Assembly: GCA_030614005.1 (NCBI GenBank)
Contig: JAUWKS010000036.1
Span: 1-32,000 of the forward strand
Length of the DNA: 32,000 bases
Direction: 5' to 3'
Origin: Candidatus Heimdallarchaeota archaeon
GTDB lineage: Archaea; Asgardarchaeota; Heimdallarchaeia; JABLTI01
In this document: piece after piece, positions 14,940 to 21,854 of the stretch
How positions within the stretch are numbered: the first letter of the stretch is position 1
Layout: every line of letters starts with the position of its first letter
Translations under genes and position numbers: made by a program
The notes under the pieces: model-generated
Told to the model about the DNA's origin: nothing
The model's database searches: none
The model's input: only the letters and a program-made list of their open reading frames with translations

Positions 14940-15311
14940 TTATTTCTTTAAAGCAGTAAGTTTTTTTGCCAATGCTGCTAAAGCTTCTTTTGCACTACCA
15001 GGATTCAAGATACCTGCACTTGAGGATTGTACTTCTAATCCTAGGGCTTTACCAATGTCTTTTTTAGAGCCACATACGACATATGGAATATTCTTTTCTT
15101 CACAGAGAAGAGGTAAGTGGGCAACAATTTCGGGTGGCTGAACATCATCAGCGATCAAAACGAGTTTAGCTTGATTTCTTTCAATTGCTTTAGTCGTTTC
15201 ATTGGTACCTTTTCTGGTTTTACCGGTGTCTCTTGCTTTTTCGAGAATCTTTAGAGCTTCTTGCTTCAATTCTGTTGGAATATCTACGTTAACATAGAAT
15301 GGTTTGCTCAT
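14940..15311 (-). CDS. rpl7ae: 50S ribosomal protein L7Ae (eL8)
   Basis: RKGTNETTKAIER..AKLVLIADDVQPPEIVAHLPLLCEEKNIPY; GGAGG SD upstream. Confidence 0.98.
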   Translation of the reverse strand: MSKPFYVNVDIPTELKQEALKILEKARDTGKTRKGTNETTKAIERNQAKLVLIADDVQPPEIVAHLPLLCEEKNIPYVVCGSKKDIGKALGLEVQSSSAGILNPGSAKEALAALAKKLTALKK

Positions 15312-15452: not shown

Positions 15453-16286
15453 TTACTTTTTTTGCTCTTTTATTTTGTTTCTTACTGCTATTAACTCATC
15501 CATAAATTCATTGAGTGAAAGATCAATATTCTTAGCTAGACTTGTAAGAGTTGTAACAATAAGATAAAGCAAATCCTGATCTTTTTTCTTGTTCTTGGCT
15601 TCTTCTTGTTCGGATATTTTGAGCAAAATTTCACCAATTCTGATGGCAATAGTCTTATTCTTGAAAGGAGTTTTGCTTAAAGCTTGAATTACGATTACCT
15701 GAAATTCTTTTCGTTTTGTTAATTCTAACTGATCAAGTATAAGTTGTAATCCAGCGAGATTTCCAGTATAAGTTAATTCTTGGATTGCTTTTCCGCGTAT
15801 TTTACCAGCAGTTTCAGGATTTTTAATGAGAGCGATTAACCATTGAACACTTGTATTATCACCTAGTTTACCTAACAATTCAAGTGATTTAATTCGCACA
15901 TCAAATACTTCTCCTTTGTCTTCAACGGTACTTGTTAAAATGGAAGGAAGATCCGCACCTTTAATGTTCAATAATGCTTCACTTACATGATGAGTCATTG
16001 TGAGATCCTTATCTATAATGCTCTGTCTAAAGGATGCTATTAATGCCCAGGTAGCTCGGGGGTTGCCTAATTTTCCGAGCAAATCAGCAGAAAATCGTCT
16101 TACTTCACTATTAGAATCATATTGTAAAGAATGGATAAGTGGATCTATTGCTTTCTCTTGCCCCAAACGATAAAGCTTACTGGCTGCACCGAAGCGCTTA
16201 TTCCAGTCTGAATCGGTTTTCAAAATAGTAATCAGAGGTTCTAAATTTTCTTTAATTGGGGAATCATCTTCGGGTTGATTGCTCAT
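15453..16286 (-). CDS. HEAT-repeat (PBS lyase-like) protein
   Basis: Repeats of D..VR..AA..LG.LG type (KRFGAASKLYRLG..AIDPLI; VRRFSADLLGKLGN; VRIKSLELLGKLGD). Confidence 0.88.
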   Translation of the reverse strand: MSNQPEDDSPIKENLEPLITILKTDSDWNKRFGAASKLYRLGQEKAIDPLIHSLQYDSNSEVRRFSADLLGKLGNPRATWALIASFRQSIIDKDLTMTHHVSEALLNIKGADLPSILTSTVEDKGEVFDVRIKSLELLGKLGDNTSVQWLIALIKNPETAGKIRGKAIQELTYTGNLAGLQLILDQLELTKRKEFQVIVIQALSKTPFKNKTIAIRIGEILLKISEQEEAKNKKKDQDLLYLIVTTLTSLAKNIDLSLNEFMDELIAVRNKIKEQKK

Positions 16287-16317
16287 TTGTATAAACTCCT
16301 GAGTGAGTTAATTTTTT

Positions 16318-17415
16318 TTATTCAAAACCTCTAGCAGATAACCATTGAGCAGTTTTCCCTACAATTGCTAGGGGCACAGATCTTAATGCTTCGAGGTTTA
16401 TTGCTCCTACAAGGAACATAGCAGTCTTTAGTTCTTGAATAAAAAGAGTGATGCTTTCTATTAATTGTATTTCGGTTCCGTCCTTTAGTATTTGAGCAAT
16501 AGGCAATGCCATGCCAACGAGATTTGCTTTTAGAGATAATGCTTTGGCAGCTTCTAACCCATTTCTAATTCCACCAGAAGCAATTATTTCCACATTTTCT
16601 GAAAGCTTAGAAATTTCTAAAGTACTAACAGCGGTTGATAAACCCCAGTTTCCAAATAATTCGCCTATTTTTTGATTAGTAAGCTTCATTTGTTGTTGAG
16701 CACGAACGGCTTCTATTTTTGCCCAACTCGTTCCTCCTGCACCTGCCACATCAATTGCTTGGACACCTGCTTCAATAAGTGCATTACCATCTTCAATTGC
16801 AATGCCAGAACCAACCTCTTTGGCAATTATAGGGCAATCAAGCTCTTTACTCAAAGTAGCTATTTTAGGTAATAATTTATCGAAATTTCTATCCCCTTCG
16901 GGTTGGACTACTTCTTGTAAAGGATTAAGATGTAAAATAAGTGCATCAGCTTTTATCATTTCAACAACTTTTTTGATTTGCTTGAATGTAACATTATAGT
17001 TTAGCTGCACTGCACCAATATTCGCAGCAATAAATGCTGTAGGGGCAACTTCTCGCACAACAGAAAAAGTATCTACTAAAGAAGGGTCCAATAAGGCTGC
17101 ACGTTGACTTCCTACACCCATGCCGATTTGAAGTTTCTCAGCCACTCGAGCGATTTTTTCATTCATACTCTTTGCTTCGTGTACCCCACCTGTCATTGAT
17201 GAAAGAAAGATTGGAGATGAGAAATTATGCCCAAGAAATTTACTTTCAATACTAATCTTGTCAAAGTTTATCTCTGGAACAGCACGAGGGACAAAAAGGA
17301 TATCCTCAAAACCATTGCTAACAGACATTTCAATATCATATTTATCGCTACAGCAAATTTCAAGATGGTCATCTTTTCGTTGTTCGATAAGCTGTTTTTC
17401 ATTTTTCTTAACCAT
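16318..17415 (-). CDS. fni: Type 2 isopentenyl-diphosphate delta-isomerase (FMN-dependent IDI-2)
   Basis: RKDDHL, SMTGG, GVGSQRA, HLNPLQEVVQPEGD, KEVGSG, AGAGGTSW..IE..R, ASGGIR. ATG at 17415 has AGGTG SD. Confidence 0.96.
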   Translation of the reverse strand: MVKKNEKQLIEQRKDDHLEICCSDKYDIEMSVSNGFEDILFVPRAVPEINFDKISIESKFLGHNFSSPIFLSSMTGGVHEAKSMNEKIARVAEKLQIGMGVGSQRAALLDPSLVDTFSVVREVAPTAFIAANIGAVQLNYNVTFKQIKKVVEMIKADALILHLNPLQEVVQPEGDRNFDKLLPKIATLSKELDCPIIAKEVGSGIAIEDGNALIEAGVQAIDVAGAGGTSWAKIEAVRAQQQMKLTNQKIGELFGNWGLSTAVSTLEISKLSENVEIIASGGIRNGLEAAKALSLKANLVGMALPIAQILKDGTEIQLIESITLFIQELKTAMFLVGAINLEALRSVPLAIVGKTAQWLSARGFE

Positions 17416-17500
17416 TGAGCACACCTAAAACAAATGAAACATAATCTGACAGTACGCTAATACTTATTAAATTATTATTATCAAACAGAAATTGGTTGGG

Positions 17501-18280
17501 TTAAAGGGAATCCAACATCTCATTTTCATCTTTGTATCCTAATTTAATAGCTATTGTGTGGAGGGCTTCTGCAACAGCAGCCTGCGTCAATTTGAATTCC
17601 TCATTTTCTAGGGCATTTGTTAAAAACTCGACAGATTTCTCATCCGGTTTTTTAGCTATTAATTCCGTAATATGACTCTTAACTTCATCCGACTTTTCTT
17701 CTTGAAAACAGATTAAAAGACTATCTAAATCAATACTTGATTTACTTTTTAGTAAGGCAATTGCAGCCTGTACACGAACTTCTTCAGACGAATCCATTTT
17801 GAGATGTTTAAAAATAATTTCACCGAAATCTTCTGAACCGTTTTTACCAAACGCTTCAATAACTGCTTCACGAACCCAATGCGACTCTTCGTTATCTAAT
17901 ATGGGAATCATCAATTTAACAGCCGAAGAATTCCCAATTTCCCCGAGAGCTTGAGCGATTGCTCTTCGAACAATGGGTGAATTTTCCTCGGCAATGGCTT
18001 TACCAAATTCTTTCGGAATTGCAATACCATCAGCTAATTTCGCAAGAGAACGAGCAGCAGCAGCACGGACATCTTCGGATTCATCTCCTTTCAAAGCTGT
18101 GAGTAAAGGATCAATTACAGTGTCGTCACCGATATCTCCAAGACTTTTCGCTGCCTCCTCACGAGTGGCTACATCCCAATTAACTAACTCTTCTATAAAA
18201 TCACTGACGTTCTTTTTGGTTGTACCCAAAGTTCGTTCCCTCAAGTATCTAATAAATGCATTTCCTTCAATATCCTTCAA
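17501..18280 (-). CDS. HEAT-repeat (PBS lyase-like) protein
   Basis: At least 5 repeats (TREEAAKSLGDIG, VRAAAARSLAKL, VRRAIAQALGEIG, VREAVIEAFGK, VRVQAAIALLK); TTG start. Confidence 0.9.
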   Translation of the reverse strand: MKDIEGNAFIRYLRERTLGTTKKNVSDFIEELVNWDVATREEAAKSLGDIGDDTVIDPLLTALKGDESEDVRAAAARSLAKLADGIAIPKEFGKAIAEENSPIVRRAIAQALGEIGNSSAVKLMIPILDNEESHWVREAVIEAFGKNGSEDFGEIIFKHLKMDSSEEVRVQAAIALLKSKSSIDLDSLLICFQEEKSDEVKSHITELIAKKPDEKSVEFLTNALENEEFKLTQAAVAEALHTIAIKLGYKDENEMLDSL

Positions 18281-18351: not shown

Positions 18352-19209
18352 CTAAATTGCAGATAAAATTAATACTACAATAACTAAAATGAGACTAACT
18401 AAAGAAACACCTAATGAAATAAATAAGATAATTCTTTGGAGCCTAAATTCTTTCATCCATCTCATACGAAATTTATTGAAATCATCTTTGTTGATGACAG
18501 TTTTGTTCATCTCTTCAAGAGCAGAACTTAGTGATTCAAGGTCAGAACGAGTTTTTGCCAAACTTTTCTTGTGAACTTTATCTGCTTCAACAAACTCTTT
18601 TTTGGTGAGTAATGTTTTATTTGCAAGAGTTTCTAAAGATTGATTTACAGATAATGCCATCCTCATAGCAGTATTTTCAGCTATTTTCTCAGCACTTTCA
18701 TGATCTTGAACATGGCTCGTTAACAAATCAATAATTTCATTTGGATTGGTCATTATTTTAAATGGCACTTCAAATGATTTGCCGTCAAATCCAACTCTAA
18801 AGAATTTAGCTTTGTAATCCTTTTGATCCCGACTTTTAGCAAAAGCGTTGCCATCATTAACCATTGCAACAGCTTCTGGTAGCAATGCTTGATAGATTTG
18901 TTGAGTAGCAATATCTGTACCTGACATGAATACAGACATGCCTGGGTGTGTATGGTACCAACCTAAAATGACTTCTCCTTTTCCTCTCTCTTCTAATCGC
19001 TCTAGTATTTTAAATTGCATCATGTTATCAAATGAAACAAAAGTAGGATTTGATTCAGCTACTGCAAAAACTGCTTCAGTTATCAGAAGTTTTTCTTTCA
19101 TTATTTTACCGATAAGATATCCACCTATTTCTCTTTCTGTATTTGTTGCAGTCCAATCAATTATCTTTGCATATGCTAACGGAGAAATCTCTACAGTAAT
19201 TTTAGTCAT
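18352..19209 (-). CDS. JAB1/MPN+ (JAMM) metallo-isopeptidase with coiled coil and C-terminal TM helix
   Basis: REIGGYLIG (catalytic Glu) and GWYHTHPGMSVFMSGTD (H-x-H-x7-S-x2-D). ISPLA..KI and TQQIYQ..AVAMV resemble Rpn11/CSN5. C-terminus IILFISLGVSLVSLILVIVVLILSAI-stop. Confidence 0.9.
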   Translation of the reverse strand: MTKITVEISPLAYAKIIDWTATNTEREIGGYLIGKIMKEKLLITEAVFAVAESNPTFVSFDNMMQFKILERLEERGKGEVILGWYHTHPGMSVFMSGTDIATQQIYQALLPEAVAMVNDGNAFAKSRDQKDYKAKFFRVGFDGKSFEVPFKIMTNPNEIIDLLTSHVQDHESAEKIAENTAMRMALSVNQSLETLANKTLLTKKEFVEADKVHKKSLAKTRSDLESLSSALEEMNKTVINKDDFNKFRMRWMKEFRLQRIILFISLGVSLVSLILVIVVLILSAI

Positions 19210-19297
19210 TTTAATCGAGAGATTATTAATTTCAATTTTTAAAAACCTTTGCAGTTTTATCAGAACTGGTTTATCAATATAGTATAATTGCTCTTCT

Positions 19298-20503
19298 TTA
19301 CAGTAATAAGATCAATGTAGTAATAATTCCAGCAACTACAATTGTTCCAAGAATTGATAAGACTATTTTTAATGTGTTTTTGTTTTTAGTCTTATAACAT
19401 GCTTCCGGACAAATTTCTATACATGTGAAGCACGAGATACATCCATTATAATCGATTTTTGGAATAAATTGACCTTTCTTGTTTTTTGTAATAGTGATTA
19501 CTTTTTCTGGGCAAGCTCTTTCACAATTCAGACAACCTGTACAACCTTCAACGTATTTAGGCACTTCAAATATTATATTCGAAAACCTAGCAAAAGGGAT
19601 TCTTCCTAAAAATGCTACTTTAGGAAGTTTGAATTTTCTTTTGTGATCTTCAATTCTCTCACCAACAATTTCGATATCCTCTAATTCCATAACCCCTAAT
19701 CCTTGTTCAGCAGCGAACCTTATTGTGGGCACTATCTTAGGATCTGAACCCATAATTCTAAACGCTACTGAATCCAAAGCTACAGCATCTGCGCTTGCTA
19801 GAATAAGATTCATCTCAACTGGACTTCCTCCCGCTCCAGGTCCCATCCCTTCTAATGCAATTATTGCATCCATTACATTTAGCTTTATCCTTGTTTTCTC
19901 AAAAGCATAAATATCAACTAAGCATTGAGCAAAGCCATTAAAAGTTGCTCCAAGAGAATGTATCCTAGTTTTATCTGCTCCACAAATTGTTCCATATAAA
20001 TTTTTGATAGCTCCCGTATAGAGCGCTAATCCATGAGTTTTCATTTTGGGAATGTTGATAACTGCTTTAGATTCTAAAAATTCTGTAGAAATATTGGCTT
20101 CCTTTAGCTTCTTGCCATTTATTTCAACCTTTGTTGGTCCATGTTCCTCTAAACTTCTAACTTGTATTTTTTCGCTTTTTTCTCCTATCTCCAGATAACC
20201 ACTTCTTTTAATAGCTGCTCTTGTTCCACCTGTTTGTCCTGCACCACTTGAATCACCAATTAATACCTTCTTGCCTAATTCTAACACCATGTTTGCCAGA
20301 GTTTCTACAACCCGAGGATCAGTTCGAATCTTTGCTTTTACCTCTTCATTATTAGGTGCTGAGAGCAAATTGGGTTTGAGTAAAACATCATCTGAATGGT
20401 CAATAAATTGCTCTAATCCACCAAGCAATTCAACAGCTCTTTTGACGGCACCCCGCACGTCGTCCTTTTCTACTTTTACAATAGAAACTTTGACTTTACT
20501 CAT
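19298..20503 (-). CDS. DUF362 protein fused to a 2x[4Fe-4S] ferredoxin, with C-terminal TM helix
   Basis: VLLKPNLL, IGDSSG, INIPKMKTH..YTGAIKNLYG, DAIIALEG.GP; CTGCLNCERACP and CISCFTCIEICP; hydrophobic C-terminus. ATG at 20503 preferred. Confidence 0.88.
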   Translation of the reverse strand: MSKVKVSIVKVEKDDVRGAVKRAVELLGGLEQFIDHSDDVLLKPNLLSAPNNEEVKAKIRTDPRVVETLANMVLELGKKVLIGDSSGAGQTGGTRAAIKRSGYLEIGEKSEKIQVRSLEEHGPTKVEINGKKLKEANISTEFLESKAVINIPKMKTHGLALYTGAIKNLYGTICGADKTRIHSLGATFNGFAQCLVDIYAFEKTRIKLNVMDAIIALEGMGPGAGGSPVEMNLILASADAVALDSVAFRIMGSDPKIVPTIRFAAEQGLGVMELEDIEIVGERIEDHKRKFKLPKVAFLGRIPFARFSNIIFEVPKYVEGCTGCLNCERACPEKVITITKNKKGQFIPKIDYNGCISCFTCIEICPEACYKTKNKNTLKIVLSILGTIVVAGIITTLILLL

Positions 20504-20615
20504 TGGTAATCGGATGACATTATATGAAAATTCAATTAAATCTTTTCTCATTTATTAATTGAAATTTGTGCATCTTATTACAAAAATGAAAGAAAAAAAG
20601 ATAGAGATATGGAAA

Positions 20616-21854
20616 TCAAACATATATTTTACATCGATAGCAGTACCAGCGATTGTATTGTTTGATAAATGATAATTTGCTTCCACATTTTGGGCAATGC
20701 CCTTTTCGCTTCTTCTTTTTTGATTCCGATTTAACTTCTTTGGGTTGCTGTACTTTTTCCTTTACAGGTTCTAGCTCTGGTTCAGTTTCACTTAAAATTT
20801 CAGTAATGCTTTCTTCGTCATTATTTCCTTCAATAATGTGCATTGTATCGAGCTTTGATCTGTCAATAGTTTCATAGCTAGCATTCGCATCTGGTTGTGT
20901 TTGTGAATCGAAATCATCCATAGGAGGGACAGGAATCATTAAATCTAATTCAGCTGAAATGTCATCTACTGGTTGACTATAAGCTTCTGTTGAGTCAACT
21001 ACAGTTAACATTTCTTTGTCAATAGATTCAATTTTGTCTTTCAAAGAAGTGATTTCCTGATTTGTACTATCTATCTGAAATTTCTTTGTTTCAACAACTA
21101 ACATTCGTTCCTCTAATGCTGTCATAATTTCAGATAAACTGCTAATTTTCTCATTCAGCATGCTTAATGTTGAAATGAGCTGATTCATATGTTCTTTTTG
21201 TGGGACATCTGTTTCAATTTTTGGGGGCATAGGCAAGGGTTTTACTGTGAATGGTCGAGAATTATTATCTAATTCTTCACCGTCAGCCCTAGCCCCATTA
21301 CGAGGGAAACCTTCTTTTTCCAGAAACATTTTTCCCATCATATTGAAAGCTTCGCTGATATTTTCTCCAGTCAAAGCTGACGTATGCAGATAAGTAGCAT
21401 CGATGCCTTTCATTTTCTTAATCTTCCCAAGGAGTTTATCAATATCTTCTTGTTTCACTTTTATTTTATCAGTAAGATCATGTTTGTTCCCTAGGATAAT
21501 AAAAATCTTCAAAAAGCCCCCTGAATGCTCAACTGCCTCTTCTACCCATTGGTCAAGTTTTTCTAGTGTTTCCGGTGAAGTGAGGTCACATACTAGGAAT
21601 CCACATTTGCATCCACTATAGAATGATGAGCGAACATGTTTGTACATTGCTTGACCAGCAAGGTCCCATATTTGGAAGTGAACTTTGTTTTCACCTAGAA
21701 CTATTGCTTTTGATGCAAAATCTGCACCAATGGTCTTAATGTATTCACTCTTAAATCCAACGCCCATAAACTGGGATCGAATGCTTGTTTTTCCTACTGA
21801 ACCTTCACCCATTAGAACAATTTTGAACACGAATTCACGTTTTATTTCTGACAA
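20616..21854 (-). CDS. Rab-like Ras-superfamily small GTPase with long C-terminal extension (coiled coil, acidic linker, Zn ribbon)
   Basis: G1 GEGSVGKT, G2 YIKTIGADF, G3 WDLAGQ, G4 NKHD, G5 TSALTG. Heptad region about aa 225-290; KKKKRK-GHCPKC..WYCYRC at the C-terminus. Confidence 0.92.
   Translation of the reverse strand: MSEIKREFVFKIVLMGEGSVGKTSIRSQFMGVGFKSEYIKTIGADFASKAIVLGENKVHFQIWDLAGQAMYKHVRSSFYSGCKCGFLVCDLTSPETLEKLDQWVEEAVEHSGGFLKIFIILGNKHDLTDKIKVKQEDIDKLLGKIKKMKGIDATYLHTSALTGENISEAFNMMGKMFLEKEGFPRNGARADGEELDNNSRPFTVKPLPMPPKIETDVPQKEHMNQLISTLSMLNEKISSLSEIMTALEERMLVVETKKFQIDSTNQEITSLKDKIESIDKEMLTVVDSTEAYSQPVDDISAELDLMIPVPPMDDFDSQTQPDANASYETIDRSKLDTMHIIEGNNDEESITEILSETEPELEPVKEKVQQPKEVKSESKKKKRKGHCPKCGSKLSFIKQYNRWYCYRCKIYV

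Follow-up and report, generated by a model that had tools for sequence, protein, structure and literature searches.

The window, the whole 32,000-nucleotide stretch of Candidatus Heimdallarchaeota contig JAUWKS010000036.1 analysed here, encodes on its reverse strand a JAMM/MPN+ metalloprotease that resembles Rpn11 and ends in a hydrophobic helix. The protein is probably a tail-anchored zinc isopeptidase of the Rpn11 type, which would face the cytoplasm and cleave ubiquitin at the cell membrane. Its open reading frame is single and intact, running from an ATG start through 285 residues to a stop codon (open reading frame list and translation). Conservation was read from an alignment of 32 sequences (A1), comprising 30 close homologues and two distant members. 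Structure was read from an AlphaFold2 model built on a 32-sequence alignment, with a mean predicted local distance difference test score (pLDDT) of 83, and about 90 in the core. The gene has the following features:

18352 to 19209, reverse strand: complete gene for the tail-anchored Rpn11-like JAMM/MPN+ metalloprotease (open reading frame list and translation; homologues of the same length and architecture)
18754 to 19209, reverse strand: JAMM/MPN+ catalytic core, residues 1-152 (Pfam JAB, phmmer and Foldseek to 6FJU, AlphaFold2)
19129 to 19131, reverse strand: codon of E27, the putative general-base glutamate of the JAMM motif (invariant column in A1)
18913 to 18954, reverse strand: zinc-binding and catalytic motif H86-x-H88-x7-S96-x2-D99 (all four residues invariant in A1)
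19045 to 19047, reverse strand: codon of P55 in the Ins-1 loop, S-N-P-T (nearly invariant in A1)
18433 to 18744, reverse strand: predicted helical stalk, residues 156-259 (AlphaFold2 secondary structure, pLDDT 58-76)
18433 to 18474, reverse strand: basic juxtamembrane patch, residues 246-259, net charge +5 (read from the sequence)
18355 to 18432, reverse strand: predicted C-terminal transmembrane tail anchor, residues 260-285 (Kyte-Doolittle mean 3.11 over 19 residues)
18352 to 18354, reverse strand: TAG stop, directly after the tail anchor
19236 to 19245, reverse strand: A/T-rich TATA-like box TTTTTAAAAA, about 30 nucleotides upstream of the ATG (sequence only)

The catalytic core matches the Pfam family JAB (PF01398) over residues 5-112, with 63.9 bits against a curated cut-off of 22.5 (E 1.5e-17). 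E27, H86, H88, S96 and D99 constitute a complete JAMM motif that is invariant in all 32 sequences of A1, which bears out the claim of an earlier note on this DNA that a full MPN+ motif stands in an Rpn11-like context. The H86-x-H88-x7-S96-x2-D99 segment aligns with the motif of CsRpn11 from Caldiarchaeum subterraneum and with that of human or yeast Rpn11. By analogy with established JAMM enzymology, E27 would serve as the general base. The nearest solved structure is CsRpn11 (6FJU), with which phmmer gives a gapless alignment of about 158 residues, 34-39% identical (2.3e-30). Foldseek matches the model to the same entry with an E value of 3.8e-18 and a TM-score of 0.87, normalised to the target; this match and the core pLDDT of about 90 confirm the MPN fold at the level of a predicted model. 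Eukaryotic Rpn11 is next best by phmmer (about 1e-16; human chains 64-65 bits, yeast 60), followed by CSN5 and AMSH (about 1e-10, 45 bits) and BRCC36 (3e-7); by sequence, Rpn11 is the closest eukaryotic JAMM. Beyond the core (residues 1-152), the model contains helices at residues 156-170, 173-197, 203-237 and 241-284. The first two correspond to H4/H5 of CsRpn11, whereas helix 203-237 and the start of helix 241-284 form a lineage-specific extension. The remainder of this last, long helix contains the hydrophobic tail.

The C-terminal 22-26 residues are hydrophobic, and zero to three residues lie between the end of the transmembrane helix and the stop codon. The only hydrophobic segment of the protein spans residues 255-285, and no N-terminal signal peptide was found in the 285-residue sequence. 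The expected topology is therefore that of a tail anchor with a cytoplasmic enzyme. The basic patch on the N-terminal side of the helix fits the positive-inside rule, and net juxtamembrane charge ranges from 0 to +7 among the 30 close homologues of A1, with -2 and 0 in the two distant ones. Both elements had been read from the DNA in the earlier note, as a basic juxtamembrane stretch and a single transmembrane helix running into the stop codon, and both were found again here. The attachment to the cytoplasmic face that it had proposed is likewise supported by the missing signal peptide and the positive-inside patch, as far as a predicted topology allows.

The tail is not an artefact. Near-identical DNA is present in marine-sediment and cold-seep metagenomes of several studies, and the 3' end of the gene is covered by contigs from independent runs that differ by substitutions only, with no indels. 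A search over 5.8 billion proteins returned about 65 full-length relatives of 266-307 residues (E 1e-173 to 1e-63), mostly from source records named Heimdallarchaeota, and homologues at this level rule out a chance reading frame. About 63 of the 65 carry the tail anchor, and every complete relative ends in a hydrophobic helix. Across these homologues the hydrophobic character of the helix is kept while its sequence is not. Because the independent contigs are free of indels and the tail is kept in homologues, an assembly frameshift and a tail missing from relatives, the two scenarios that would have undone the proposal, are both excluded.

The protein is not the one-off that the earlier note implied, but the usual form of the enzyme in many Asgard lineages. 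An exhaustive HMMER search over 1.84 billion cluster representatives recovered many more Rpn11-like proteins of 205-300 residues, a large share of which end in a transmembrane helix; source names include Baldrarchaeia, Odinarchaeia, Heimdallarchaeum and 'Promethearchaeota'. In a phylum sample of 300 Asgard genomes (match threshold E <= 1e-10), 163 had a match, and the best 30 of these 163 were all tail-anchored. With 20 further loci fetched beyond the best 30, the tail-anchored form was found in at least 14 GTDB families (f1, f2, f3, f5, f6, f8, f9, f13, f17, f19, f23, f25, f29 and f30), with lengths of 217-304 residues. The search for an MPN domain followed by helices and a transmembrane segment, which had been suggested for archaea at large, thus shows the architecture to be widespread in Asgard archaea. 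Among the loci fetched, families f4, f7, f14, f15, f18 and f20 have soluble JAMMs only. Family f14 (68 genomes) has an E2, and the two loci fetched from it carry soluble, more distant JAMMs. Family f11 (76 genomes, those listed being 91-99% complete) gave neither an E2 (UQ_con) match nor a match to the Rpn11-like protein. In the complete 1.4-Mb genome G001 (family f8), the tail-anchored gene is the only JAB-family match.

A quick maximum-likelihood tree of 165 JAMM cores, with a backbone support of 41 and an arbitrary root, has one group of 81 rows (SH-aLRT 86) that takes in 67 of the 72 sequences with a tail anchor. The tail-anchor label changes 12 times on this tree, against about 54 times when labels are shuffled. 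The group is separate from a tight clade identified by source names as eukaryotic PSMD14, and also from a soluble group containing Caldiarchaeum-type sequences. Because of the weak backbone and the arbitrary root, no more is drawn from the tree than that the sequences with a tail anchor make up a coherent, old orthogroup.

The host genome (3.6 Mb, 90% complete) encodes components of a ubiquitin system. The earlier note had called for a check of ubiquitin, E1, E2, E3 and ESCRT genes, and the genes found are a single 77-codon ubiquitin gene ending in GG-stop, several ThiF/E1-like genes, three E2-like genes and three Snf7/ESCRT-III genes. The ubiquitin gene (L001:1486-1719, reverse strand, contig C123) is the only ubiquitin-family gene found, and the genes around it are metabolic, with no E1, E2 or E3 gene among them. 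Four JAMM genes are present. The tail-anchored one matches JAB best; the other three encode a soluble paralogue of 329 residues, a 146-residue Prok-JAB protein (the usual desampylase type) and a protein of 211 residues. The 329-residue Rpn11-like paralogue (L003:859-1848, reverse strand, contig C9) is extended at its C-terminus by about 130 residues, and its gene adjoins that of a 210-residue small GTPase. In family f4, no Rpn11-like genes were found other than relatives of this paralogue, of about 300 residues.

The tail-anchored gene itself stands apart from ubiquitin genes. In the host genome it lies on a different contig from the ubiquitin, E1-like and E2-like genes, and in G011 on another contig than ubiquitin. 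Distances to ubiquitin genes are 830 kb in G001, 183 kb in G026 and 46 kb in G029; in G038 the two ubiquitin clusters lie 59 kb and 136 kb away. G038 holds both forms, a soluble 224-residue Rpn11-like gene at a Ub-E2-E1-RING cluster and the tail-anchored gene elsewhere, about 136 kb from this cluster (L076). The cluster (L076:1710-5983) comprises the 224-residue Rpn11-like gene, a ubiquitin ending in GGF, an E2, an E1 and a Cys/His-rich RING-like protein. At the level of families, the tail-anchored protein tends to co-occur with the E2. Families without an E2 match (f11, 0/76 genomes; f21, 0/5; f10, f16, f26 and f28) have no match for the protein either, nor does f24, where an E2 occurs in one of seven genomes, and nearly all families that bear an E2 have it.

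Several points weigh against a membrane-bound ubiquitin isopeptidase. In none of the six genomes checked does the tail-anchored gene stand beside ubiquitin, E1 or E2, and because it never adjoins them, only homology and phyletic pattern connect it with ubiquitin. The co-occurrence with E2 is suggestive only, because related genomes are not independent. The tree comes from a quick search and its backbone is weak, topology and membrane insertion are predicted from hydrophobicity and charge only, and no RNA run is among the listed sequence holders that contain the locus.

A mechanism can be proposed for the favoured reading. The single C-terminal helix would probably be inserted into the cytoplasmic membrane post-translationally; ArsA/Get3-like genes occur in the host genome, and since the family is also matched in all 14 control genomes, this is uninformative. 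The helical stalk of about 100 residues would hold the JAMM domain at the inner face of the membrane, possibly with a reach of several nanometres. With a zinc ion bound by H86, H88 and D99 and a water molecule that E27 activates, the enzyme would hydrolyse the isopeptide bond that follows the C-terminal Gly-Gly of ubiquitin, with the Ins-1 loop positioning the ubiquitin tail as in CsRpn11. Ubiquitin would most likely be cleaved off lysines of membrane or membrane-proximal proteins and thereby recycled. Because ubiquitin is encoded already ending in GG and needs no precursor trimming, deconjugation at the membrane is the likely job. The enzyme would act alone, like CsRpn11 or AMSH, and not within a proteasome lid.

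The comparison with CsRpn11 (PDB 6FJU, 6FJV, 6FNN) favours such autonomy. CsRpn11 is a soluble protein of 202 residues which, as a monomer, cleaves both precursors and conjugates of ubiquitin (PMC6043591), and its gene lies inside a Ub-E2-E1-RING operon (PMC5654768, PMC6043591). Common to both proteins are the core, the motif, the proline of Ins-1 and the first two helices after the core; the Asgard protein differs by a transmembrane anchor and about 60 additional helical residues, and is encoded away from ubiquitin genes. The operon-linked CsRpn11 type is a soluble protein of about 200 residues encoded in or beside a ubiquitin operon; the tail-anchored protein matches it in neither respect and falls in a largely separate group of the tree. 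The Ins-1 proline occurs in CsRpn11 and AMSH, a glycine takes its place in lid-bound Rpn11, and the proline has been tied to autonomous, AMSH-like activity (PMC6043591). P55 aligns with this proline of CsRpn11, and by analogy its conservation would fit an enzyme that acts on its own.

AMSH/STAMBP is also a JAMM enzyme, and the job proposed here is alike, namely ubiquitin removal at a membrane in a genome with ESCRT-III. However, AMSH is recruited via MIT and SBM domains and not by a transmembrane helix. The Pfam scan of the Asgard protein gave no match to an MIT domain, and the JAMM core begins at residue 1. Yeast Doa4 is an endosomal, ESCRT-recruited deubiquitinase (DUB), but a cysteine protease. 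The likeness to AMSH and Doa4 is a functional comparison only, drawn from established knowledge, and within it a role of the Asgard protein together with ESCRT is an attractive hypothesis.

Asgard archaea are the closest prokaryotic relatives of eukaryotes and carry eukaryote-like ubiquitin and ESCRT systems. A further, more tentative possibility, which we consider doubtful at present, is that the tail-anchored form is the ancestral and principal Rpn11-like DUB of Asgard archaea, working at the membrane with the ubiquitin-ESCRT system and stripping ubiquitin from membrane cargo before remodelling by ESCRT-III/Vps4. If so, it would be a hard-wired analogue of AMSH or Doa4, and on the line of descent to eukaryotes the membrane-linked removal of ubiquitin would be older than the role of Rpn11 as a soluble subunit of the proteasome lid.

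The stalk (residues 156-259) is amphipathic, with hydrophobic positions spaced by 3-4, and a 7-residue insertion, exactly one heptad, sets the three closest sequences apart from the rest. Either a short coiled coil or a bundle of helices would fit these properties. The 80-90 helical residues described in the earlier note stand as a helical stretch after the core; in the predicted model, however, they are not one coil but about 105 residues in four helices. Close relatives have a membrane-proximal part of 48, 50, 51, 54, 57, 66 or 68 residues; in distant orthologues with a tail anchor, which are 217-245 residues long overall, this part has about 25. Because Rpn11, CSN5 and BRCC36 also have C-terminal helices, a helical extension after the core is a trait of the family and does not indicate a SNARE. 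Residues 156-285, searched by features against the ESM Atlas, gave no usable match. A complex prediction with two full-length copies scored 0.28 against a mark of 0.42, and is used neither for nor against oligomerisation. The conclusion drawn is that the stalk serves as a spacer, may also help in assembly, and is no SNARE motif.

Among the alternatives, the one that survives best holds that the protein removes ubiquitin as part of a degradation machine docked at the membrane and, like Rpn11 embedded in the lid, is active only when coupled to an AAA+ unfoldase (PAN, Cdc48/VAT or Vps4). The arrangement would resemble endoplasmic-reticulum-associated degradation (ERAD) or a membrane proteasome, with the helical stalk as the docking element. 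Rpn11 is indeed the nearest eukaryotic relative, and eukaryotic Rpn11/PSMD14 likewise consists of an MPN+ core followed by C-terminal helices. Rpn11, CSN5 and BRCC36 join their complexes through such helices, and their full-length chains align with the model over 260-290 columns, through the C-terminal helices (Foldseek); the amphipathic, heptad-like spacing of the stalk would suit the same use. BRCC36 of the BRISC and BRCA1-A complexes, in which the JAMM core is followed by a C-terminal coiled coil for assembly, aligns over about 260 columns, but it is soluble, requires an MPN- partner (Abraxas/KIAA0157) and is less similar in sequence. Eukaryotic Rpn11/PSMD14 is soluble, paired with Rpn8, held in the helical bundle of the lid and has a glycine in Ins-1, whereas the C-terminus here is a transmembrane anchor and no lid context is seen. 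No MPN- partner and no AAA+ gene was seen as a conserved neighbour in the loci compared. Moreover, the length of the stalk is not conserved, and both the proline in Ins-1 and the resemblance to CsRpn11 suggest an enzyme that is active on its own. A degradation machine of this kind is therefore considered unlikely.

Slightly less probable again is that the substrate is another beta-grasp modifier (SAMP or Urm1-like), or that the protein only trims precursors. Archaeal JAMMs include desampylases, the host genome has several ThiF-type E1-like genes, and precursor processing is the best-shown activity of CsRpn11 (PMC6043591). However, SAMP precursors were not cleaved by CsRpn11 (PMC6043591), and the host has the separate 146-residue Prok-JAB gene, of the type usual for desampylases. 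As for precursor trimming, the ubiquitin of the host is already encoded ending in GG, and a membrane anchor would be hard to explain.

It is very improbable that the protein lacks catalysis and serves as a membrane scaffold or receptor, as an MPN pseudo-enzyme of the kind of Rpn8 or EMC8/9 would: a weak, sub-threshold Pfam match to UPF0172, the EMC8/9 family, exists (22.2 bits, cut-off 24.4), but JAB scores far better (63.9 bits) and all five catalytic residues are invariant over the family.

The earlier note had also considered a SNARE-like stalk, and in its strongest form this idea would make the stalk and anchor a tethering element and the protein a factor in membrane fusion or tethering. 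The protein is tail-anchored, residues 203-262 provide about 60 predicted helical residues adjoining the transmembrane segment, and prototypic SNAREs have been reported in some Heimdallarchaeota (10.1101/810531). Hidden Markov models (HMMs) of SNARE and synaptobrevin families (PF05739, PF00957 and relatives) gave no match to the query protein at E values up to 10. In a Pfam scan of the stalk and transmembrane segment of three family members, the best SNARE-type match came from one homologue, at E 0.21 and 11.9 bits, over the transmembrane segment only. A SNARE motif is an uninterrupted run of heptads of fixed length beside the transmembrane segment, about 53 residues in 16 layers, whereas this stalk is broken into four helices and its membrane-proximal length varies from 25 to 68 residues (48-68 in close relatives, about 25 in distant ones). 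The preprint on Heimdallarchaeota SNAREs (10.1101/810531) does not mention JAMM or MPN proteins. On these grounds the SNARE-like stalk was abandoned, and a fusion or tethering function is the least credible of all the alternatives.

The favoured reading, a ubiquitin isopeptidase anchored in the membrane by its tail, would extend what is known of the family. To our knowledge, all characterised JAMM DUBs (Rpn11, CSN5, AMSH, BRCC36, CsRpn11 and archaeal JAMM1) are soluble, and for this reason the Asgard protein would be the first membrane-integral JAMM DUB. No description of a membrane-integral JAMM, or of a transmembrane tail in Asgard Rpn11-like proteins, was found in the open-access literature, in agreement with the earlier note, which knew of no characterised enzyme of this kind. 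A membrane-anchored JAMM is not mentioned in PMC6043591, PMC5654768, PMC9192718, PMC10307638 or two preprints. The cluster analysis of Fuchs et al. trimmed everything outside the JAMM core, and Hatano et al. only counted JAB genes. Membrane-anchored DUBs are already known in eukaryotes: USP19, tail-anchored at its C-terminus in the endoplasmic reticulum (10.1101/2020.10.05.326363), and USP30 are fixed to membranes by a single transmembrane segment, but they are cysteine proteases of the USP class, with an unrelated fold and mechanism. The tail-anchored JAMM is well supported as an architecture and as a phyletic pattern; its activity and substrate are predicted, and any partners are hypothetical. 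A conserved Rpn11-type isopeptidase built into the membrane would point to the membrane as a site of ubiquitin turnover in Asgard archaea, and its wide distribution bears on the use of ubiquitin in the ancestor of eukaryotes. The protein is also a small, expressible experimental handle, with a soluble domain for activity and an anchor for localisation.

In the close family, gene order is radical-SAM, coiled-coil protein, Ras-like GTPase, DUF362-ferredoxin, JAMM, HEAT, Fni, HEAT and L7Ae-S28e-L24e. The TATA-like box upstream of the JAMM gene might mark a promoter of its own, a weak sign in a genome of 34% G+C. In the window, the downstream run (14940-15311 and 15453-18280, reverse strand) comprises HEAT, Fni (an FMN_dh protein like type-2 isopentenyl diphosphate isomerase), HEAT and L7Ae; related contigs keep this order and continue with S28e and L24e. 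The upstream neighbour (19298-20551, reverse strand) encodes 417 residues with a DUF362 domain, two 4Fe-4S motifs and a hydrophobic C-terminal helix. The DUF362 and JAMM genes adjoin and both products look tail-anchored; the same DUF362 gene precedes the JAMM gene in two related contigs. Next lies a Ras/Rab-like GTPase (20616-21854, reverse strand; Pfam Ras 4e-37) with an extension of about 230 residues ending in a CxxC...CxxC zinc ribbon, which keeps its position in the related contigs L020 and L021. A functional module of GTPase, Fe-S protein, JAMM and HEAT was considered and rejected, the synteny being found only within the close family, interrupted there, and incomplete in one member. As unrelated inserts beside the JAMM gene, one contig has a methyltransferase and a GNAT gene, both on the opposite strand, and another has an SDR gene on the same strand. 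One close-family member is without the GTPase and DUF362 genes, and in other Asgard classes the neighbours of the JAMM gene are entirely different. Common descent of closely related genomes best accounts for the synteny; because it is limited to the close family and interrupted by unrelated genes, the neighbourhood is not used as functional evidence.

Other lineages have recurrent neighbours of their own. In Odin- and Baldr-type genomes and in families f23 and f25, two conserved uncharacterised genes of about 400 and 250 residues lie directly upstream of the tail-anchored JAMM gene (L023:3841-5076 and L023:5180-5959, forward strand; also L024, L047, L050, L052, L064 and L067). In the f25 locus L052, the gene of about 400 residues lies at the edge of the locus and did not cluster. 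Neither gene has a Pfam, PDB or Atlas match, and neither was found in the host genome with one sequence or a 7-row profile. The AlphaFold2 model of the shorter protein (pLDDT 53) is too poor for a fold search. The HEAT protein downstream of the JAMM gene was considered as a relative of the 259-residue Odin neighbour and proved unrelated on comparison. Finally, a Roadblock/LC7 gene lies near the tail-anchored JAMM gene in 15 genomes of family f17 (loci L035-L055) and in a Baldr-type contig (L024:9868-10443, reverse strand). Together with the GTPase gene of the window, these neighbours hint at a link to small-GTPase regulation.

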